Shown here piece after piece: positions 2,939 through 14,004 of a stretch of DNA of 64,000 nucleotides. The notes beneath the pieces were generated by a model, which saw only the letters and a program-made list of their open reading frames with translations, was not told where the DNA came from and searched no databases. The DNA is from a virus, in the IMG/VR virus record IMGVR_UViG_3300032046_000016, positions 16,905 through 80,904 of that record, one strand, 5' to 3'. How positions within the stretch are numbered: position 1 is the stretch's first letter; every line of letters begins with the position of its first letter. Both the position numbers and the translations under genes were made by a program.

Positions 2939-4294
2939 CTACGCCACGCTCACGCGGCGAGCGTTCGCGTGCAGCTTCTCCCACGGAATCTGGAGCGCCA
3001 CCAGGCAGCGCATCAAGAAGTCGTACGTCCCGCGGGTGATCGCCAGCGGAATGTAGGCCATGAAGTTCGCCTGGGGCTGCCCCAACGGGTCGAGCATGCC
3101 GACCAGCGATGCCCCGCGAGCCGGATTGCGATTGATCAGGAAGATCACCTCATCGCCGGCGTCGAGCGGCTTCTGGTTGGCGGCGTGCGGAGGCGCCGTG
3201 TACCCGCCGGTGTCGTCGAACGTGACCACCCGCGCCAACGGGTTGCCGTCCGCGTCGTAGGTGTTGGCGGGAATGACCGCCAGCAGCGTCTCCGTGCCGC
3301 TGGCCGTGCCCCGGAACACCTTGTAGAGGATGGCATCCGCGTCGTCGTCCCACGTGAGGCGGATGGTCTTGTTCGGGTTGGCGGTCGTGGCGTCGTCCTC
3401 GACCGCGGCCACCTGCTCGCCCCTCTGCGTGACCGACGCCACGCGATAGAAGAACTGCGTCGCGTCGGGCAGCGTGCCGCCGGCGACGGCTGCGGCGGAG
3501 AGGTTCCCCGGCTTCGCCACGCCGGTCGGCTTCACGTAGCTCGTTTCCAGAATGACCACGCCGCGATATGTTGACATGCGCATTCCGCCCTCGAACTCCA
3601 CGTCGGGCGTCTCCCGGCGGGCGAGGGTCTGAAGGCCGCTCACCTTCGAGTGCATGCCGATGCTCATCATGAACATCAGCGGGTCCTTCGCCGTGCCCCT
3701 GTACGGCGTGGCCGCGTCGATCAGCTCGTCCAGGACGCTGAGCGCGACGACCCCGTTCACGTCGAAGACGTTGGTCTGGGACAGGCGGTCGAACCCGTTG
3801 TACTGGTACGGGTCGCCGGACGCCGCGCCACCACCCGAGACGTCCTTCTCACCCGTGCTCCCGGAGGCGCCCCAGATGGTGCAGAACTCCAGCATCTCGC
3901 TGATGCTCTCCACGCCGGCGCCCTGCTCCAGGAGCAGAGAGTCGAAGAACTTCTTGCTCGCGCCCATCTGGAAGCCCGAAACCGAGCCCCAGTAGTCGTC
4001 GATCTTCAGGGTGACGGTGGGGCGATCGAAGGTCGACGCGCCAGGGCTGGTCTCCTTCGCCAGCTCGCCCTCGAAACGGGCCTGCTGACGCGCCGTGCGC
4101 CGCACGATCTCGTGCACCCGGGCCGTGGCCTGCGTCCTCTCAAGCAGGGCTACCAGCGGATTCTGGCTCAGAAGGTCCTCCACGAGGACCTTCTCCAGGT
4201 CTTCCGCCTGGAGAGCGGCACCAGAGCCGGAAGCCGCCGTCAGCGCCTTGATGAGCTCGCTGGTGGCCCCTTGAACCTGCGCGCTGGGGGGCAT
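2939..4294 (-). CDS. Major capsid protein (HK97 fold) with inserted Ig/FN3-like domain
   Basis: 451 aa after scaffold; N-arm KALTA..GAALQAEDL; EFCTIWG, YNGFDRL, YRGVVI motifs; strong AAGGAGG RBS. Confidence 0.85.
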   Translation of the reverse strand: MPPSAQVQGATSELIKALTAASGSGAALQAEDLEKVLVEDLLSQNPLVALLERTQATARVHEIVRRTARQQARFEGELAKETSPGASTFDRPTVTLKIDDYWGSVSGFQMGASKKFFDSLLLEQGAGVESISEMLEFCTIWGASGSTGEKDVSGGGAASGDPYQYNGFDRLSQTNVFDVNGVVALSVLDELIDAATPYRGTAKDPLMFMMSIGMHSKVSGLQTLARRETPDVEFEGGMRMSTYRGVVILETSYVKPTGVAKPGNLSAAAVAGGTLPDATQFFYRVASVTQRGEQVAAVEDDATTANPNKTIRLTWDDDADAILYKVFRGTASGTETLLAVIPANTYDADGNPLARVVTFDDTGGYTAPPHAANQKPLDAGDEVIFLINRNPARGASLVGMLDPLGQPQANFMAYIPLAITRGTYDFLMRCLVALQIPWEKLHANARRVSVA

Positions 4295-4373: not shown

Positions 4374-5924
4374 CTACTCGACCCGCACCCCGAACATGAT
4401 GCGGTTCAGCGCGCCCAGCCTCTCACGCGGGGGCAGGGCGTCCAAGCGCTTGCGCAGGGCGGTCTCGGCCTCGCTACCCTCGGCCTCCGAGCCCTCCCCT
4501 TCGGGAGGGCTACCGCCGAGGCTCTTGTAGACCGGCCGGCGGGCCTTCGCAATCTCGCTACGGACGACCTTCGCCACGTCCACGAGGGTGAGCGGCGCGT
4601 CTCCGTTCTGACCAGTGTCACCAGCCGCGGCGGCGGGAGCCTTCTCCCCGGCATCCTTGGGCACCAGGCCGGTCCCCTTCGCCACGTCCACGATGGCGCC
4701 CTGAAGGTCCTGCACCCAGGCAACCAGCTCCTTCATGGCGTCGCGGATGCCCGTCGCGTCGACAGCGCCATCGGCGCGCTTCTCCACGGCGGGAGCCGGC
4801 GTACCGTCGCCATCGGCCTTCTGGGTAGAGCCCTCCTCGAGCAGGGCGAGCATGGCCTTCACGCCCTCCTCGATCTTGTCCATGGCGCTCTTGATCTCGA
4901 TCTGGGACTGCTTCGAGAAGCGGGCTCCCCGCTTCTCGATGTCGCCCAGCGTGAGACCGCTCATGGCGACGACGGCTTCCAGAGCCCGCTTCGAGGTGTC
5001 GGTCAGCTCCTCGCTGCCGGCCGCCTTCTCCGGCTTGTAGACGGTGGCCGCGTTCTCGAAGGCGGCCAGCCACCTGGAGTTGAAGTCGCCCAGCGCCTTC
5101 TTCATGAGGTTGCCGCGCTCGTCCGTCTTGACCTCCGCGGCCTTCAGGATATTGAGCGAGACCTGGTGCAGAGCGTCGCTCAGCCGCCAGAACTGGCTCG
5201 TCGCCTCCTGGCCAGCGATCAGCCCGGCGAAGTCGGTCTGCTTCGCCACGCCACCAGCCGGCGCCTCGGCCGCAGCCTTCTGGACCGCGGCTCCCTCACC
5301 AGCCGGCGCGCCCTCACCAGCCGGCGCTCCCTCACCGGTCGGCGCGCCCTCAGCGGCCGGAGCGGCAGCGGGAGCGCCCTCGCCGGCCGGAGCGCCCTCA
5401 GCACCCTTGGCCGCTTCGCCCTCGCCCTCGCCCTCACCTTCGCCGTCGCCACCCTTCTTGGTGGGCTCCGGATAGCCGTACTTCGGCTTCTCCTTCGGCT
5501 TCTTCGCCTTGCCCGCGATGGCGGCGCGCAGCGCCTTAACCGCCTCCTGGAGGGGAGCCGGCAGGGAGTCGAAGACCTTGTCGAGCTGCTCGACAGCAGC
5601 CTTCACGGCCTTCACCTCGTCGTCCCCGAGGTCGCCGGCGGCCTTGCTCACCAGCACATCGAGGGCATTGGTGATCTCCACGGCCGCTTCCTTGCTTAGC
5701 TGGTCACCCTCGACCAGCACCGCCAACCCGCGGCCAATGGAGGCGACCTGGCCAGCCAGGTCCTTGGGGTCGGTGTCCAAGTCCGACATTCTCGCGCCTC
5801 CTTCTTGTCTGCGCTTCACGACCCACCAGTCCTCACCCAGGGCTGGCACGTCTACTAGGTCCACCCCACTGACGTGGAGATCGACCAGCTCTCCGACTTC
5901 ATCGGGCTTCTTCGCGTCAGGCAT
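4374..5924 (-). CDS. Capsid scaffold protein with N-terminal protease-type strand (ELVDLHVSGVDLVDVPA)
   Basis: Acidic, Ala-rich, low-complexity; immediately upstream of MCP; many KA motifs. Confidence 0.7.
   Translation of the reverse strand: MPDAKKPDEVGELVDLHVSGVDLVDVPALGEDWWVVKRRQEGGARMSDLDTDPKDLAGQVASIGRGLAVLVEGDQLSKEAAVEITNALDVLVSKAAGDLGDDEVKAVKAAVEQLDKVFDSLPAPLQEAVKALRAAIAGKAKKPKEKPKYGYPEPTKKGGDGEGEGEGEGEAAKGAEGAPAGEGAPAAAPAAEGAPTGEGAPAGEGAPAGEGAAVQKAAAEAPAGGVAKQTDFAGLIAGQEATSQFWRLSDALHQVSLNILKAAEVKTDERGNLMKKALGDFNSRWLAAFENAATVYKPEKAAGSEELTDTSKRALEAVVAMSGLTLGDIEKRGARFSKQSQIEIKSAMDKIEEGVKAMLALLEEGSTQKADGDGTPAPAVEKRADGAVDATGIRDAMKELVAWVQDLQGAIVDVAKGTGLVPKDAGEKAPAAAAGDTGQNGDAPLTLVDVAKVVRSEIAKARRPVYKSLGGSPPEGEGSEAEGSEAETALRKRLDALPPRERLGALNRIMFGVRVE
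5290..5450 (-). repeat. 18-nt tandem repeats encoding APAGEG plus (EG)n tract in scaffold
   Basis: ccctcaccagccggcgc-type units repeated about 5 times. Confidence 0.8.
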
Positions 5925-5932
5925 ATCCGCTC

Positions 5933-6310
5933 CTAACGCTTCTTGCGCTTGCCGTTGTTCTCGACGAGCGCCACATGGACCTCATGTATGCTGGCGGCAA
6001 TCTCTCGCAGGGCCGGCATCTCGGCATCGGAGTGCGCCTTCAGCGCCGCGATGAGCTCGGTATGCTGCACTTCTGTTGCCTCCAGCCTTCTCAACAGCTC
6101 GGTGATGAACGCCTCTCTGATCTCGGCCTGGCGCCTGGCCTCCGCCATCTGTTCCTTGACGAACTCCTCGAACGCCAGGCGCTGGCGTTCTGTGACGACC
6201 TGATTGTTGCGCACCACCCACGTGAACACCCCCGCGAGCACCAGGGCGGAGAGGAGCGTGCCGCCTTCCTTCAGCGCCTCGTACCCGAAATCGAGCATGA
6301 CCAATGTCAC
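5933..6310 (-). CDS. Single-TM coiled-coil protein, BhlA/UviB holin-like
   Basis: N-terminal TM (LLSALVLAGVFTWVV) then coiled coil with RE motif. Confidence 0.45.
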   Translation of the reverse strand: MTLVMLDFGYEALKEGGTLLSALVLAGVFTWVVRNNQVVTERQRLAFEEFVKEQMAEARRQAEIREAFITELLRRLEATEVQHTELIAALKAHSDAEMPALREIAASIHEVHVALVENNGKRKKR

Positions 6311-9300
6311 TTGATCTCGGACCGCTTTCTGGGTATGCGGCGCGCCCGGCCCTCAATGCTGAACCCGGTCCGCTCACCCTTCTTCACGCGCTCCCACTCG
6401 CGCGGATCGTTCACTCGCACGCCCATGATCCAGGTGCCCTTGACTACCTTATGCAGCTTGCCATCGGTTCCCTCCAGCTCGAAGTCTGTCGGTGCCAGGT
6501 AGCTCTCGACGACCCGGAGCCTCGGGTCGTCGTACACGTGCATAACGCCGATCTGCTGGAAGCGCTCCATAAAGCCGTGCGCCGCCTTGCGGATCTCCTC
6601 GGCCTTGACCACCTCGTCCTGGAGGTCGATGTACGGCCACGGCTTGAGCACGGGCCCGTAGACCAGGTGCTCCTCCTCGACCGCCTTGATGATCAGCATC
6701 TTCAGGACGATGCGGCTCTCGACGGCCTTCGCCTTCAGATCGACGAGCTTCGGCTTCTCCCCAGGCTTTGCCCACACCAGCCAGTGATCCCCGCGCTTCC
6801 GCCTCTCGTCTGCCACCTCGTCGAGCGTCTTCGTATCGGCGACTGGCGTTTCATCCTCAGGCCACTGAGCCAGCCAGAAGCGCTCGCCGGTGGGTCGGGG
6901 GACGGAGCTGATCACCAGCCGGCCCTTCATGTCGCCCTTCTCGTCCTTCAAGAAGAGCTCGAAGCTGTGGCGGTGCCACACGCCCATGTCCCAGGTGCCG
7001 TAGGCGACGGCGAACAGCATGCCGTAGGTCTTGGAGCTGGCGCCGGCCTCGCCAGGCTTGAAGACGGCGGGCTTGCCTCGCCCGACCTTCAGCCACTCGA
7101 CGGGCGGCGGGCCGTACCAGGTGCATTGGAAGCTGGGCGCGTGGTCGGCGGCGAGGAACTCGTCGGTCCCGTCGTCGTCGGTGTCCGGCTTGAAGATGAC
7201 GGGGTGAAACATGAGCTTGGGGCTGAACTGGCAGCGCAGGTCGCCGTGGTAGCGGTAGCCGGCCTTGCGCAGGTCGGCCTCGCTCTTGCCGGCGTCCTCT
7301 TCCTTGATGCCCATGTAGTGGTGGTGATAGACGAACTGGCCCGTGCCGCTGGGCGGCCACATTCTCTGCCAGTCGGTCTCCCAGAGGCGCAGGAAGCGCT
7401 CACCCCGCGACTCGCCCTCGCCCTGCTTCAGGAGGTGGATCAGCCCGATGTCGGGGACCTCGAGCAGCTCGAAGTCGGCGTCGGCGATCTCCGGGCAGGT
7501 CACTTGTCCAGACGTCTGGACTTTCTGCTTGGGCTCCTGGAGGACGTGGGCCCGGCGGGCGATATCGACCGCTTGGTTCGCGTAGTAGGCGTCCTTCCGG
7601 CTGATGTCCCGGTCGATCACGGTCGGCACGACCCAGTACAGGATCGGCTTCCCGTCCTTATCGGGACCGCTCACCAGCTCCTGGACCTGGACGGTCAGGA
7701 CGGCGCCCAGGGGATAGGTGCCGTTGTCGCTGACGCCGCCGACGTCGATGTACTCCCGGCCGTCGTACTCCTGGAGGTTCGTGTAGCTGTCGCGTCCGTG
7801 GAGCAGCCCGCAGGTGTAGGTCTTCGAGCCGCCGGCGTTGTCCTTGCTGTCGATCACCGTCACCTTCAGCTCGGTGACGTGCTTCACCTTCGACCACTCG
7901 TTCGTCGACCCGCCGATGCCATAGGGACCGTCGAGGGTCTTCACCATGGCGCCCTCGGACATGGCGACGGCGCTCGCCTTGAGGATCGCCGCGTTCATCT
8001 GCGCGCGGTCGTGAACGATGGTGGTGCTGGTGATAGCGAAGGCGGCCTTCCCCTTCAGGTTCTTGGCGTAGAACTCCTCCAGGGCGGTGCGCCGCTCGGT
8101 CCACGGCTTCTCGTGCAGGTCCTCTTCCCGGTAGGGCAGGTCGAAGACGGTCAGCACGACGGTGGCGCCGGCCAGGTCGGGCTCGTCGGCCAGGAGCGGG
8201 TCGAGCTCGGTGCGAGGCAGCCGCTTGCCATCCCGTACCATGCCCATATCGCAGTCGAGAATGTAGTCGCCAGGGATGGCGAGCAGCATCTTCGCCAGGT
8301 CGGGGAAGACCTTGGCCCGGTCGCGGATATTCTCGAAGGCGATCTCGACGCGGCCGCCCGCCTTCTGCACCACCGTACGGTAGCCGTTGAACTTCACCTC
8401 GACGTCGAGGCCGCCGGCGATGCGGTCCTTTGCCCAGTGATCCCAGAGCTCCGAGCTGGACAGGAACTCCGTGTACTCGGCGACCGCCGGCTTGGGCGGT
8501 ATCCACTTGCCGAAGGGCTTCAGGGCGACCTTCTCCAGGTCTTCGGCCTGCAGCGCCATCCCAGAGGGCGAGTCGGCGGTCAGCGCCTTCGTCGTGGGCT
8601 TCACGGCCCGGAGGCGCCCGCGGACGTGAACCGTCTCCCAAAGGCCCGGCTCCTCGAACGTCTCCTCCTCAAGGTCCAGGATCTCGAACTCGGCAGTAGT
8701 GCCAGCCTCCTCCCGGAGCTTGGGGTCGGCGTAGAACTGGAAGCTCAGCTTGTTCCAGTAGCTCTTGTGGGTCGGGTCGGCGAAGGCGCCCTCGCCCTGC
8801 GTGCTCGGTACCTCGAAGGCCAGGACGCCGCCGGACTTCAGCACCCGCCAGATCTCGCCCATGATGGCGACCTGGTCCTCCAGGTGCTCCAGGAAGTGCC
8901 AGGCCCGTACCTCGTCCACGCTGCCGTCGGGCCAGGGGATGCCCTGGCTCAGGTCGTGGACGACGTCCGGCTTGACGTCGGCCCGGGCGTCGATATTCAC
9001 GTAGCCGTCCAGCTTCTCCTTCCCGCAGCCCAGGTTCAGGCGCACGGGCCCAGCCTTCTTCAGCGTGACCACCGCGCGCTCTTCCACGGGACGCAGCACC
9101 AGGTCGTACAGGGGAACGTAGTCGGAGTGGGGGCCGGAGGCGCTGAACACGTGATGCAGCTCGGGCTTGCCGCTCTTGCCTGGGTCAACCTCCTTCCGCA
9201 TCAGGATGGTCAACCCTTCTATCAGGCCGGCGTTGTGGTCGCACGCCTCAAGCCGGTAAAGCAGGTCTACGTCTCCGGGCTTCGAGCCGTTGCCGCCGGC

Positions 9301-9630
9301 CTTGATCGCCAGGACCTCGTCGGCCGACTGCACCGCCGAGCCGACTATGCTCACGAAGTGAGGGACGACCAGGACGGGATCGGTCAGCCGCTTCAGCACG
9401 CTGTCGTGCTTCATGCCCCGCTTGTCCATCTCGGCGACGATCCCAGCGTGGAGGGCGCGGCAGCGCTTCTGGCTCAGCGGCTTCTCGTGGACAAGGACCT
9501 CGTTGCCCTTCTTCAGCTCGGCCCACCAGATATGCGTCAGGCGGTGGTCAGCGACAAGCCCGCCATCCGATACCTTCGACGGGTCGAACGTGTCGATGTC
9601 CTTGATCTTGGCGATGTCCACAGCATTCAT
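6307..9630 (-). CDS. Head polyprotein: Pol-beta-type NTase-like + SAM methyltransferase + ATP-dependent DNA ligase + LigD phosphoesterase-like + XkdF-like prohead serine protease
   Basis: IVGS..DVDLL; LNLGCG..HFLEHL..RVLKSGG; EVKFNGYR, EGAMVK, WSKVK; FVYHHH..HGDLR; LVYGPVL..D.QDE..GVMH..VVESY..KGTW..GFSIEG. Confidence 0.85.
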   Translation of the reverse strand: MNAVDIAKIKDIDTFDPSKVSDGGLVADHRLTHIWWAELKKGNEVLVHEKPLSQKRCRALHAGIVAEMDKRGMKHDSVLKRLTDPVLVVPHFVSIVGSAVQSADEVLAIKAGGNGSKPGDVDLLYRLEACDHNAGLIEGLTILMRKEVDPGKSGKPELHHVFSASGPHSDYVPLYDLVLRPVEERAVVTLKKAGPVRLNLGCGKEKLDGYVNIDARADVKPDVVHDLSQGIPWPDGSVDEVRAWHFLEHLEDQVAIMGEIWRVLKSGGVLAFEVPSTQGEGAFADPTHKSYWNKLSFQFYADPKLREEAGTTAEFEILDLEEETFEEPGLWETVHVRGRLRAVKPTTKALTADSPSGMALQAEDLEKVALKPFGKWIPPKPAVAEYTEFLSSSELWDHWAKDRIAGGLDVEVKFNGYRTVVQKAGGRVEIAFENIRDRAKVFPDLAKMLLAIPGDYILDCDMGMVRDGKRLPRTELDPLLADEPDLAGATVVLTVFDLPYREEDLHEKPWTERRTALEEFYAKNLKGKAAFAITSTTIVHDRAQMNAAILKASAVAMSEGAMVKTLDGPYGIGGSTNEWSKVKHVTELKVTVIDSKDNAGGSKTYTCGLLHGRDSYTNLQEYDGREYIDVGGVSDNGTYPLGAVLTVQVQELVSGPDKDGKPILYWVVPTVIDRDISRKDAYYANQAVDIARRAHVLQEPKQKVQTSGQVTCPEIADADFELLEVPDIGLIHLLKQGEGESRGERFLRLWETDWQRMWPPSGTGQFVYHHHYMGIKEEDAGKSEADLRKAGYRYHGDLRCQFSPKLMFHPVIFKPDTDDDGTDEFLAADHAPSFQCTWYGPPPVEWLKVGRGKPAVFKPGEAGASSKTYGMLFAVAYGTWDMGVWHRHSFELFLKDEKGDMKGRLVISSVPRPTGERFWLAQWPEDETPVADTKTLDEVADERRKRGDHWLVWAKPGEKPKLVDLKAKAVESRIVLKMLIIKAVEEEHLVYGPVLKPWPYIDLQDEVVKAEEIRKAAHGFMERFQQIGVMHVYDDPRLRVVESYLAPTDFELEGTDGKLHKVVKGTWIMGVRVNDPREWERVKKGERTGFSIEGRARRIPRKRSEIK
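7506..7521. repeat. 16-bp palindrome GTCCAGACGTCTGGAC, copy 1
   Basis: Perfect palindrome, identical to 25659-25674. Confidence 0.8.
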
Positions 9631-9638
9631 GACGACAA

Positions 9639-9677
9639 AGACCCCACCGAAAGACGGTGGGGTCTCCAAGGGACCTC
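9639..9677 (-). promoter_or_regulatory. 11-bp hairpin occluding the polyprotein RBS, with two GAGNNCC motifs
   Basis: AGACCCCACCG-TCTTT-CGGTGGGGTCT ends 8 nt before ATG 9630; GAGGTCC (9677-9671) and GAGACCC (9666-9660). Confidence 0.6.
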
Positions 9678-10966: not shown

Positions 10967-11983
10967 TCAGGCAGAGCGCCTCTGGCCGCTCCAAGGAACC
11001 TCCGGGCGGTCCCAGGCACAAGGATCGGCAGCGGCCTTTCGCAGCAGCTTGCCCACGCCAACCCAGCAGCGACGCGAGAACGGCGACACCCTGCAGCGGC
11101 AGCGTGGGTGTAGGGGAGGATGATCGTGGCCGCTCGGAAACATGCCCCCGAAATGGGCGCTGGGAGGCGACGGCGCCAGGAGGCCGGACCGGAGAGGCAC
11201 CGCGCCGGCCGCCTCGTTGTCCCGGCAGCGTGAGCAGGCGCCAAACTGGCAGATCCACTCGACGTACTCCACGCCGTTCTGCTGGAAGGTCATCAGGCGG
11301 CCGATCTGCCGCGTGCGCTTCAGCTCGGTCCTGGCGATCAGCTCGGCGCGGTCCCGGTTCTGAACGATCTTGTCTATCTGGCCAGTCATGCGCTCCGGCC
11401 CGAAGTTGCCGGACAACCCGCGGAGGATGGAGTTGGCGATGGAGCGGCGGGTCTGCTCACGGATTCCCTTGATGCTGGAGCCCACGGTCAGCGACAGCAT
11501 GCGCCGGATCGCTGGGTCGCGGAGAACGAAGCGCTCGGGCGGGAAGCCCTCGCCCTTCGGGCCCGCCTTCTTGACGTCCTGAGCGGTGTAGCCCAGCTCG
11601 GTCAGGGCGTCGGCGCCGCCCCGCTGGAAGCCCAGGATCGCGTCCAGCGCCAGGACCGTTCCCATCTTGGCCCACAGACGCTGCGCCTCCTCGCTATCGT
11701 CCCAGGCTGCCAGCAGCCCCTCGATGCGGCTGCGCGTCGAGTTGGGCGACAGGCGCACCCATTCCTCGACCGGCATCGAACGGCGCAGCTCCGCGAACAG
11801 GCGGAGGACACCGAGGCCGGCCTTTACCTCGTGGGGCTCAATCAGGTCGCGGGGTTTCGGGCGTGTGGGGAGCGGAAGACGGTAGCGTTGCTGGGGCGTC
11901 GCCGCCTTGAGGATGTCAGTCGCCGGAGGGCTGAGAGTCGTGGTCCTGTGCCTCCCTTCGGCGATAGCCGTTACGCTCTCCAA
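10967..11983 (-). CDS. MuF/SPP1 gp7-like minor head protein
   Basis: RAELIARTE, CSRC, PPLHPRCRC motifs; start uncertain. Confidence 0.88.
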   Translation of the reverse strand: MESVTAIAEGRHRTTTLSPPATDILKAATPQQRYRLPLPTRPKPRDLIEPHEVKAGLGVLRLFAELRRSMPVEEWVRLSPNSTRSRIEGLLAAWDDSEEAQRLWAKMGTVLALDAILGFQRGGADALTELGYTAQDVKKAGPKGEGFPPERFVLRDPAIRRMLSLTVGSSIKGIREQTRRSIANSILRGLSGNFGPERMTGQIDKIVQNRDRAELIARTELKRTRQIGRLMTFQQNGVEYVEWICQFGACSRCRDNEAAGAVPLRSGLLAPSPPSAHFGGMFPSGHDHPPLHPRCRCRVSPFSRRCWVGVGKLLRKAAADPCAWDRPEVPWSGQRRSA

Positions 11984-12364: not shown

Positions 12365-14004
12365 ACCGCTAGCTGAAACAGCTCCTGCAGGTCCGCGCTC
12401 GCCGCCTTCTTCGTAGCCGCATCCACGCCGGCGTCCCGGAGGTCCTGGATCACGCTGTCGAAGTACCAGCGGATCTCGCCCTCGGTGTCCAGCTCCTGCA
12501 TCGCCTTCTCGACCGCCACCTTCAGCGGGTCGGGAACCTGCGAGCTCAGGAACTTGCGCCGGCGGCCCCGCTCGCAGTCCTTGAGCGCGGCCCTCTTCCA
12601 GCGCCGCATCTCGTCCAGGACAGGCTGAGCGGCGTCGGCCTTCTGCGCCTTGCCTGCGCCCTCGGGCTGCACGAAGAGCGGAGTGGCCGCCTCGCCAGCC
12701 GGCACGAGGCCCTGATTCATCAGGAACGTATCGCCGCCCTCGTAGGGCTCCATGCCGCGCTTGGCGCGCCACTCGTTGCGGGTCTGCAGGCCGGAGCCGA
12801 CCGCGCTCACGCCGACCGCCACCTCGTCGCTTTCCTTGGCGAAGTCCGGAACCTTGAACTGGATGCGCCAGCCCTTGATGCCCTTCCGCCAGAGGCGCCA
12901 CATGTTCAGCGTCGTCTGCACGATCTCCTGCATGGGCTTGGCTTCCATCCAGTACAGGATCTGCTCCAGGCCCTCCAGGTTCGCGCGGTTGACGTCCTCG
13001 ACCATGCCAAGCACGCCCGCCGATGCGCCCACGACGGACAGCATCTCGTTGCGGCTGAACGTCCGGCCCTTCAGGTACTCCGAGTCGCGGCCCGGACCTG
13101 GACCGCTCACGAAGCTCTTGTAGTCGACGCCACCCTTCACGACAACGGCGTCGCGGTTGGCGTTCTCGACCCCCGCATACCAGGCCTCGATCTTAGCCTC
13201 CAGCGCTGCGAAATCGTCGTCCTCGATGTCCTCGGGCGCTGCCCACATGCCTGGTGGGGTGCGCTGATTGCGGAACGAGTTCTTGTTCCACGCCTGGGCG
13301 TACAGATCGGTGATAGCGGCGATGCGCAGCGACTCCAGGTCGGAGGCGGTCCACCGTCCCTCGATGTCGGGCACCTGGAAGTTCAGCACCTCGTCGATGG
13401 CAAACTCGGCGGCTTTGCCCTCGAAGTACTGGATGTACGCCTTCTCCAGGTTGGGGAAGTAGCCCTTGGCGTCCACCATCGGCACCACCCGCCCCGGCAT
13501 GACCACGAAGTCGATCTCGTCGCCGAAGCCGTTCTTGACGATCTCCCACGAGCAGAGGTTAAAGAGCTTCAGCCGGGCGAACGTCAGCCAGAGCTTGTGC
13601 ACGGTGAGCTGCCACTGGCGGACGTTAATCACGGGCCCCTGGAGGTCGGGGTTAAAGAAGGTCCGCAGGTAGGCGCCAGCGTCGGGGTCGGGGTCTTCAC
13701 CCTCTTCCAGCTCGTCGCGGGCCTCGACGATCTCCAGCGGCTGCGCCACGCAGATCAGGGCGATGCGCCGAATGGCGGCGCGCACCCAGGGTAGCGACCG
13801 CCACAGGGCGACGAGCTCGAAGTGGCTGATCTGGGCGCTGCCCTCATACATGGCAGCCATCCCAGCGCCAAGCCCGTACAGGAAAGGTGGCCGCATGAAG
13901 CTGCGCGGCTGCGGCGCGGACTTCGGCGATGGCGTCGCCGCCTTAATGACGCGCCGCTCGTGGCCAGGAGGAAGCCAGAGCTCAACCTCAGTCCCTGTCG
14001 TCAT
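12361..14004 (-). CDS. Portal protein (HK97 family)
   Basis: WVRAAIRRIA, NKNSFRN..PPG, NRAN, TRNEWRA..GMEP..GGD motifs; after terminase. Confidence 0.92.
   Translation of the reverse strand: MTTGTEVELWLPPGHERRVIKAATPSPKSAPQPRSFMRPPFLYGLGAGMAAMYEGSAQISHFELVALWRSLPWVRAAIRRIALICVAQPLEIVEARDELEEGEDPDPDAGAYLRTFFNPDLQGPVINVRQWQLTVHKLWLTFARLKLFNLCSWEIVKNGFGDEIDFVVMPGRVVPMVDAKGYFPNLEKAYIQYFEGKAAEFAIDEVLNFQVPDIEGRWTASDLESLRIAAITDLYAQAWNKNSFRNQRTPPGMWAAPEDIEDDDFAALEAKIEAWYAGVENANRDAVVVKGGVDYKSFVSGPGPGRDSEYLKGRTFSRNEMLSVVGASAGVLGMVEDVNRANLEGLEQILYWMEAKPMQEIVQTTLNMWRLWRKGIKGWRIQFKVPDFAKESDEVAVGVSAVGSGLQTRNEWRAKRGMEPYEGGDTFLMNQGLVPAGEAATPLFVQPEGAGKAQKADAAQPVLDEMRRWKRAALKDCERGRRRKFLSSQVPDPLKVAVEKAMQELDTEGEIRWYFDSVIQDLRDAGVDAATKKAASADLQELFQLAV

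Follow-up and report, generated by a model that had tools for sequence, protein, structure and literature searches.

A copy of the major capsid N-terminal arm in the domain linker of a head-module polyprotein from an uncultured sediment phage

The polyprotein and its copy of the capsid arm

The window analysed here is a stretch of 64,000 nucleotides of phage DNA, positions 16,905 to 80,904 of the 80.9-kb IMG/VR virus record IMGVR_UViG_3300032046_000016 (G+C content 66%). Its head module lies on the minus strand in the order large terminase, portal, MuF-like protein, polyprotein, scaffold and major capsid protein (MCP), followed by a head-tail adaptor and neck proteins. The polyprotein joins several enzyme domains to a prohead protease, and the linker between its methyltransferase (MTase) and DNA ligase domains holds a near-copy of the N-terminal arm with which the mature MCP is predicted to begin. 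This copy and its possible role in packaging are the subject of this work. The features on which the argument rests are listed below. Residue numbers of the polyprotein run from the TTG at 9669; 13 must be subtracted to count from the ATG at 9630. A vertical bar marks a cut.

6307..9669, minus strand: polyprotein, 1120 residues from TTG 9669, with an in-frame ATG at 9630 (Pfam, PHROG, alignment, AlphaFold2, Foldseek)
8593..9051, minus strand: MTase domain, about residues 207-359 (Pfam Methyltransf_11; AlphaFold2 domain limits)
8527..8589, minus strand: polyprotein copy of the capsid N-arm, residues 361-381, KALTADSPSGMALQAEDLEKV, with a putative cleavage at K361|A362 and a second h-x-K site at K380|V381
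7528..8526, minus strand: ATP-dependent DNA ligase domain, residues 382-714 (Pfam DNA_ligase_A_M; Foldseek)
6325..6717, minus strand: XkdF-type prohead protease domain, residues 985-1115 (Pfam Peptidase_S78_2, E 1e-29; PHROG head maturation protease)
2939..4294, minus strand: MCP, 451 residues, with an Fn3-like insertion (PHROG, profiles, alignment)
4187..4249, minus strand: capsid original of the motif, residues 16-36, KALTAASGSGAALQAEDLEKV, with a putative maturation cut at K16|A17

Translation of 8589-8527 and 4249-4187 bears out the match reported in the initial annotation of this DNA. Polyprotein residues 361-381 and capsid residues 16-36 agree at 18 of 21 residues and at 49 of 63 bases. 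The match obtained an E-value of 2e-7 by tblastn over 20 kb and of 1.2e-8 by blastp-short against all other open reading frames (ORFs) of the locus, and a z of 13.6 against shuffled queries. A six-frame scan of the window revealed no third copy, the next best 21-mer having 8-9 identities, and the capsid protein searched against the whole record matched only itself and the polyprotein site. The flanks of the two copies are unrelated (30-43% nucleotide identity).

The differences between the copies provided insight into how the similarity is maintained. The several synonymous differences first noticed proved to be an understatement: synonymous changes amount to 8.7 and non-synonymous ones to 5.3, corresponding to a synonymous divergence (dS) of 0.85, a non-synonymous divergence (dN) of 0.13 and a dN/dS of 0.15 (Fisher p 0.001). 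The same codon is used at 11 of the 18 shared residues, and 10.0 +/- 1.9 are expected from codon usage alone. A recent duplication or gene conversion was ruled out, since common descent has left no trace at the synonymous positions. The three replacements (A21D, G23P and A26M in capsid numbering) fall at positions that are also variable among capsid relatives, and the residues kept across the capsid family are kept in the polyprotein copy. Synonymous sites are thus randomised, yet 18 of 21 residues are identical, and therefore the peptide is held by selection in both genes. That the 21-mer is functional appears to us very likely.

Pfam, sequence alignment and the AlphaFold2 model all confirmed the placement between MTase and ligase, as first described. 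When 11 or 54 polyproteins were aligned, the motif was a 20-residue insertion relative to the short linker of the homologues, which has the consensus h-x-K-A-x-L-x-P-F. The insertion columns are occupied in only 3 of 53 homologues, by unrelated larger modules, and a linker lysine stands 4-5 residues before the invariant proline in 37 of 54. The model of the polyprotein, built from the 54-sequence alignment, had a mean predicted local distance difference test score (pLDDT) of 84, falling below 50 at residues 197-206, 360-374, 715-743 and 981-990, that is, at the four domain boundaries. The motif occupies the second of these stretches: residues 360-374 are below 50, and residues 375-380 form a short helix (AEDLEK). 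The putative cut site hence lies in a flexible stretch (360-374) between two confidently folded domains.

The initial annotation held that absence of the motif from homologous polyproteins would speak against it. The motif is indeed absent from about 165 of them, including representatives from an all-against-all HMMER scan of 1.8 billion clusters. This absence is uninformative, and the expectation ill-posed, because those polyproteins travel with other capsid families. Homologous polyproteins in viral contigs were never paired with the MCP family of the window, and in the closest relatives of this MCP the polyprotein is replaced by a stand-alone protein of about 350-390 residues ending in an XkdF domain. 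Closer relatives were also sought. Neither viral nor genome contigs yielded any in scans with the capsid protein. Polyprotein residues 200-620, run against metagenomes, gave no match, nor did a degenerate DNA pattern written for the junction of motif and ligase, and the motif pattern matched only four known capsid genes in viral contigs. Members of the polyprotein cluster were either 99.8-100% identical or did not cover the linker. The capsid P0004 was 80% identical (80-85% for the lineage of P0004 and P0046), and the polyproteins retrieved by protein search were 36-45% identical. Contigs from at least four sediment metagenome runs contain the window, and the phage is known solely from sediment metagenomes. 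The contigs of four sediment runs span both copies of the motif without listed differences, which attests presence only and offers no informative polymorphism.

Related polyproteins and copies of other capsid N-termini

The polyprotein displays, in order, a Pol-beta-type nucleotidyltransferase (NTase)-like region, a class I S-adenosylmethionine-dependent MTase, an ATP-dependent DNA ligase, a domain of about 235 residues and the XkdF protease. Foldseek matched the ligase domain to archaeal, human and T4 DNA ligases, with E-values down to 4e-17. Even at E 5, neither residues 720-985 nor the first 200 residues had a Pfam match; a presumed likeness of residues 745-980 to the LigD phosphoesterase found no support. 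The protease domain shows 41-48% identity whether it is compared with the XkdF domains of other polyproteins or with the stand-alone proteases that accompany the capsid relatives, and this comparison gave no signal of a chimeric origin. The family comprises 351 cluster representatives at E <= 1e-30. Their architectures are heavily shuffled and draw on NTase, MTase, ATP-dependent ligase, uracil-DNA glycosylase-like (PF03167), ADP-ribosyltransferase (PF03496, PF01129) and metallo-beta-lactamase domains, usually with the XkdF protease last. Multiple unrelated enzyme domains, a position among head and packaging genes, and a processing peptidase, the marks of polyvalent proteins, are all found in the polyprotein of the window. 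The polyprotein has the look of a kit, packaged in the capsid, for modifying or repairing nucleic acids.

We compared each polyprotein with the N-termini of its own downstream proteins, testing against shuffled queries. Three further matches were obtained, all to the capsid protein. The polyproteins of loci L086 and L088 display an N-terminal Mu-like_Pro domain (E 2e-13) followed by K-LTTIQTPGIHTPQYIKNFRVDY (core K-LTTIQTPGIHTPQY...), and the Phage_cap_E-type MCP of L086 starts M-GITVQTPGIHTNVYLSKIAVNY (core M-GITVQTPGIHTNVY...), a match with a z of 10.5. On the 79.6-kb contig to which L104 and L096 belong, the polyprotein displays K-ALISAQTADIHTPQY and the MCP M-AITVQTGNIHTNVY; the pair has changed together at the same two positions, with QTADIHT in the polyprotein and QTGNIHT in the capsid. 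The polyproteins of L067 and L102 display TTK-AQPTVGDVHVGGPL and EK-SQPTLGDVHIGGSLT, and their MCPs start M-TQPTRGDVHVSRAL and M-PQPTRGDVHVVRSLT. Together with P0029, P0070 and P0088, they share K-x-QPT.GDVH[VI], corresponding to M-x-QPTRGDVHV in the capsid. In P0029, P0070 and P0088, the same module always follows a lysine and stands at differing domain boundaries.

A lysine takes the place of the MCP Met1 in 7 of 8 sequences. AGGAGG ribosome sites, together with in-frame stops that lie 0-7 codons upstream, establish where these second-family MCPs start. Where Phage_cap_E-type MCPs have an N-terminal extension, it ends in a lysine in the same register (MRIRK|AQPT, MSAGLFRK|AQPT, ..SAIAK|GQPT). 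A second copy of the capsid N-terminus was otherwise absent from 57 capsid-family loci, and among 90 loci with Phage_cap_E-family MCPs the only convincing copy was in L142, which has such a polyprotein and belongs to the same contig as L067. Candidate copies in L144 and L197 were weak (E 0.07-0.12) and were not accepted. At least two further sequence forms, found with Phage_cap_E capsids, thus have the N-terminus of their own capsid copied at a domain boundary. These lysine-preceded copies of unrelated capsid N-termini lend comparative support to the suggestion, made in the initial annotation, that the motif acts as a tag.

Other shared modules were observed in these polyproteins. A Cys-rich, Zn-ribbon-like module (C..C...LWAGG....C..H) is present in two of them, at the N-terminus of P0029 (residues 1-84), where it directly precedes the module of lysine plus capsid N-terminus, and in the MTase-ligase linker of P0028. 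An 1800-residue polyprotein with ADP-ribosyltransferase repeats (L098:9764-15181) displays EDIEFEG(Q/E)KFNPxHGAGGRFA four times, and two further ORFs of L098 (298-1101 and 5565-6191) have this motif close to their N-termini; a related FNQNHDELGQF was found in one ORF of L144. The L098 motif may represent another shared type of linker or targeting module. The polyprotein gene of L096 and L104 is split across the two ends of record IMGVR_UViG_3300005099_000065 (79.6 kb), which suggests a complete genome, circularly permuted or circular.

The lysine as a putative cleavage site

The case for a cut before the arm rests on the capsid of Listeria phage A511. In its GenBank record, the mature capsid protein Cps is annotated from residue 24, after Lys23 (EDALK|SFTTGYG). 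In the MAFFT alignment, K23 of A511, K16 of the capsid and K361 of the polyprotein fall in a single invariant column. Together, these results uphold the background given in the initial annotation, that A511-like capsids are cut after a lysine at this position. The lysine is invariant in 51 of 51 capsid relatives (32-50% overall identity), where it stands behind N-terminal extensions of 5-24 residues. The A511 protease is a Peptidase_S78, a clan-mate of XkdF. In another phage, HK97, the capsid protein gp5 is cut at K103|S104.

The relationship between the two capsids was traced through profiles. The score of A511 Cps exceeds the Pfam cut-off for SU10_MCP (PF17236); the MCP of the window has no Pfam match itself, and 4 of its 14 aligned relatives match the same family. 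The profile of the MCP family matches PDB entry 9vel, 'Gp6.1', with an E-value of 4e-8, and its hhalign alignment with A511 Cps is collinear and weak (probability 7%, E 0.005). The position of the MCP start follows from its AAGGAGG ribosome site and from the in-frame stop that lies one codon upstream. As a separate observation, MCP residues 268-361 (approximate limits) form an inserted Fn3-like domain with weak profile matches to PDB entries 3mpc and 5g56, and this insert is the sole confidently modelled part of the AlphaFold2 model of the MCP.

Further candidate sites occur in other head proteins, which are listed here with the remaining genes of the module.

16098-14380, minus strand: large terminase
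14004-12361, minus strand: portal
13930..13950, minus strand: portal residues 19-25, VIK|AATP, candidate Lys-type processing site (sequence)
11983-10967, minus strand: MuF-like protein
11894..11914, minus strand: MuF-like protein residues 24-30, ILK|AATP, candidate Lys-type processing site (sequence)
9052..9081, minus strand: NTase-MTase linker of the polyprotein, residues 197-206, ERAVVTLKK|A, an h-x-K|A site (pLDDT below 50)
4374..5924, minus strand: scaffold-like protein, 516 residues, with homologous blocks in the scaffolds of capsid relatives and a basic C-terminus ...LRKRLDALPPRERLGALNRIMFGVRVE

The motif [IL]K-AATP stands about 20-26 residues from the N-termini of both portal (VIK) and MuF-like protein (ILK), and the portals of relatives have a lysine at the equivalent place (TVEK|SEKD). 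This arrangement fits the removal of a short propeptide by a Lys-directed protease, which both proteins may undergo. A short site of the form h-x-K|A..T is common to four head proteins, and the next 15 residues are common only to MCP and polyprotein. Since portal and MuF-like protein display the short site alone, the cut seems to need less than the full copy. Within the polyprotein, a h-x-K|small site (K205|A206) lies inside the low-confidence stretch 197-206, and HLLKQ (745-749) and IIK|A (993-996) lie a few residues past the third and fourth low-confidence stretches.

Several features of Lys-type processing by the S78 clan are found together at this locus: a P1 lysine aligned with an annotated cut, a cognate XkdF protease encoded in the head module, and occurrence of the site in other head proteins. 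The K|A cleavage proposed in the initial annotation is thereby a sound deduction by homology, made reasonable by the invariant lysine, by the portal and MuF sites and by the disordered linker. We consider that cleavage after K361 probably takes place.

Two observations concern the scaffold. Its N-terminus is conserved, with VDLHVSGVDLVDVPALGED in the window and LEELTVTIVSMVDSPAIGRE in the scaffolds of relatives (L003/L004/L058/L060). Its Gly/Glu/Ala/Pro-rich, low-complexity part (5397-5623) displays a summed contig depth of 370-2050-fold in the sediment runs, which is a repeat artefact and no measure of abundance.

Proposed role, alternatives and known systems

Based on these findings, we propose the following chain of events. 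The polyprotein would enter the procapsid along with its own C-terminal XkdF protease, which would cut it after K361, as it would cut the capsid after K16 and probably the portal and MuF-like protein after [IL]K. The cut at K361 would separate an NTase-MTase fragment from a ligase-containing fragment, and the latter would begin with ALTADSPSGMALQAEDLEKV, near-identical to the mature capsid N-terminus. This capsid-like arm could then engage the partner of the capsid N-arm, namely the procapsid scaffold or the N-arm socket on neighbouring capsid subunits, and so keep or position the enzyme in the head for delivery with the DNA. The capsid N-arm is the scaffold-binding site in P22, T7 and 80alpha. 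In JBD30, the N-arm of an HK97-fold capsid protein is a helix in the procapsid, refolds at maturation, and contacts neighbouring capsomers and the portal (PMC11445458). The docking on the inner capsid surface that the initial annotation suggested would be one form of this last step, for which the inner capsid surface, the scaffold and the protease are candidate partners. A short site seems enough for the cut, the native linker probably had a Lys site already, and the Phage_cap_E MCP is no substrate at the copied stretch; therefore, the copy would do more than create a cut. Taken as a whole, and including a role as tag after cleavage, we see the chain as standing on an even footing between right and wrong.

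Several points weigh against this proposal. The polyprotein carries the protease domain itself and may need no tag to enter the head. We infer both cleavage and packaging from sequence. Positions P2-P5 differ between the two copies (KPTT and SELI), so that the protease context is incompletely copied, and K380|V381 is a possible second cut that would remove the arm. Most polyproteins with an identified capsid were without a copy (z <2.2 in all but four loci), which makes the device optional. The search for a linker-covering relative of 60-90% identity, in which co-variation of the copies within the lineage could be followed, yielded none. The AlphaFold2 model of the capsid (mean pLDDT 53, with the N-terminal 170 residues below 50) is too poor to place the N-arm. 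The complex prediction of the scaffold C-terminus (425-516) with the linker (350-400) scored 0.00, which is evidence neither way.

The alternative that survives best is pure substrate mimicry, in which the protease, having evolved to read the capsid protein, would recognise an extended stretch C-terminal to the cut, and the arm would be idle after cleavage. The copy begins exactly at the conserved lysine and lies where two domains meet, within a disordered linker, and a polyprotein that holds its own protease may need no entry signal, all of which suits this explanation. Mimicry has a precedent in staphylococcal phage 80alpha, the capsid and scaffold proteins of which copy the N-terminal motif of ribosomal protein L27 and are cut by the host protease Prp. 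However, the native linker lysine conserved in 37 of 54 homologues indicates that the cut site probably predates the insertion, and a short site seems enough, given that [IL]K-AATP is all that portal and MuF-like protein have in common with each other here. Moreover, Phage_cap_E capsids start at the motif, with Met for Lys, and hence offer no substrate there, yet their N-terminus is copied. We regard pure mimicry as an unlikely but serious competitor.

It is less probable still that the motif is a transient targeting peptide of the T4 type. A 19-mer from K361|A to K380|V would bind the assembling core or shell, draw the polyprotein into the procapsid or retain it there, and then be excised at both ends, and capsid residues 17-35 would likewise be a removable mini-propeptide in the lineage of the window. 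Sites of the form h-x-K border both copies (TTK|A or LIK|A at one end, LEK|V at the other), the K35-V36 pair of the capsid occurs in this lineage alone (P-A, R-A or S-A stand there in relatives), and the capsid-targeting sequences of T4 are propeptides of 10-20 residues removed by gp21 (PMC5694885). However, residues 17-45 are the best conserved of the capsid N-terminal third, with proline at position 35 in most relatives, which fits a retained structural arm, and A511 Cps has one annotated cut, at the first lysine. For these reasons, excision at both ends strikes us as improbable.

The motif could also be a neutral relic, a functionless piece of capsid gene placed in a tolerant linker by illegitimate recombination at K-A-L microhomology. 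The insertion is unique to the lineage of the window, and at its 5' junction stands K-A-L, in keeping with the consensus of the native linker. This is very difficult to reconcile with the persistence of 18 of 21 residues despite saturated synonymous sites, with replacements confined to family-variable positions, and with the recurrence of analogous copies in polyproteins paired with a different capsid family; we give it little credence. A nucleic-acid repeat (a regulatory RNA or DNA site or a recombination hotspot) that codes by chance, as two same-strand copies 4.3 kb apart in one late operon might suggest, is barely credible, since the 14 of 63 differing bases are mainly synonymous and display the pattern of protein-level constraint.

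The tag proposal can tentatively be extended to a general and portable cargo-loading code. In such a code, a Lys cut plus a copy of the mature N-terminus of the cognate capsid would be trimmed by the prohead protease and would plug N-arm sockets, for example unoccupied ones around the portal vertex, or the scaffold's own N-arm site. It would have appeared in two or more capsid families that are unrelated (SU10_MCP-like and Phage_cap_E-like), with XkdF-type and Mu-I-type proteases. We offer this extension as a possibility, and think it more doubtful than the chain proposed for the window itself.

The choice of which injected enzymes are packaged is understood in few model phages (T4 and P1), where it relies on short and idiosyncratic N-terminal peptides. 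Our data suggest a rule that could be read from genomes: at a domain boundary, a lysine and, directly after it, the N-terminus of the phage's own capsid in copy. If true, packaged cargo and processing sites would become predictable in uncultured phages, and the movement of polyvalent trains between capsids would be explained, the tag alone being rewritten. It would also provide a simple handle for loading foreign or chosen proteins into phage capsids. The payload of this polyprotein (NTase-like region, MTase, DNA ligase and a further domain) resembles a ready-made kit for nucleic-acid modification or repair that would be delivered at infection.

Among known systems, the capsid-targeting sequences of T4 and P1 are alike in that short peptides couple head-packaged, host-directed proteins to the prohead and its protease, and in that the cargo includes enzymes delivered with the DNA. 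The T4 vertex protein gp24 has a 10-residue propeptide of this class (PMC5694885), and the internal proteins of T4, as well as Alt, also carry capsid-targeting sequences. For the capsid-targeting N-terminus of P1 DarB, no consensus shared with other head proteins was found. The T4 and P1 signals stand at the primary N-terminus, and are removed in T4, whereas the motif of the window is internal (361-381 of 1120) and would be N-terminal only after the putative cut. It also lies on the C-terminal side of that cut, where it would remain attached to the cargo, and, as a paralogue, matches the mature N-arm of the capsid almost exactly.

The cargo-loading peptides of encapsulins are likewise short peptides that dock cargo to the inner face of an HK97-fold shell. 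Unlike the motif described here, they are C-terminal, unrelated in sequence to the shell protein and involve no protease step. The maturation of A511 Cps shares with the window an S78-clan protease, possibly the Pfam family of the capsid, and a P1 lysine after a hydrophobic and before a small residue; only the capsid cut is known there, and reuse of site and arm in a cargo polyprotein is not annotated. Polyvalent proteins are similar as multi-enzyme trains among head genes that are predicted to be packaged, processed by a peptidase of their own and injected (Iyer et al. 2017, PMC5512222). That work mentions neither XkdF nor DNA ligase, and describes no linkers that copy a capsid N-terminus. 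Our literature searches found no description of an internal, retained-side copy of a capsid arm that is rewritten for each capsid. Compared with the known targeting and processing peptides, the new element would thus be a peptide that is internal, lies on the retained side of the putative cut, and is a paralogue of the capsid arm apparently rewritten when the cargo module changes capsid.

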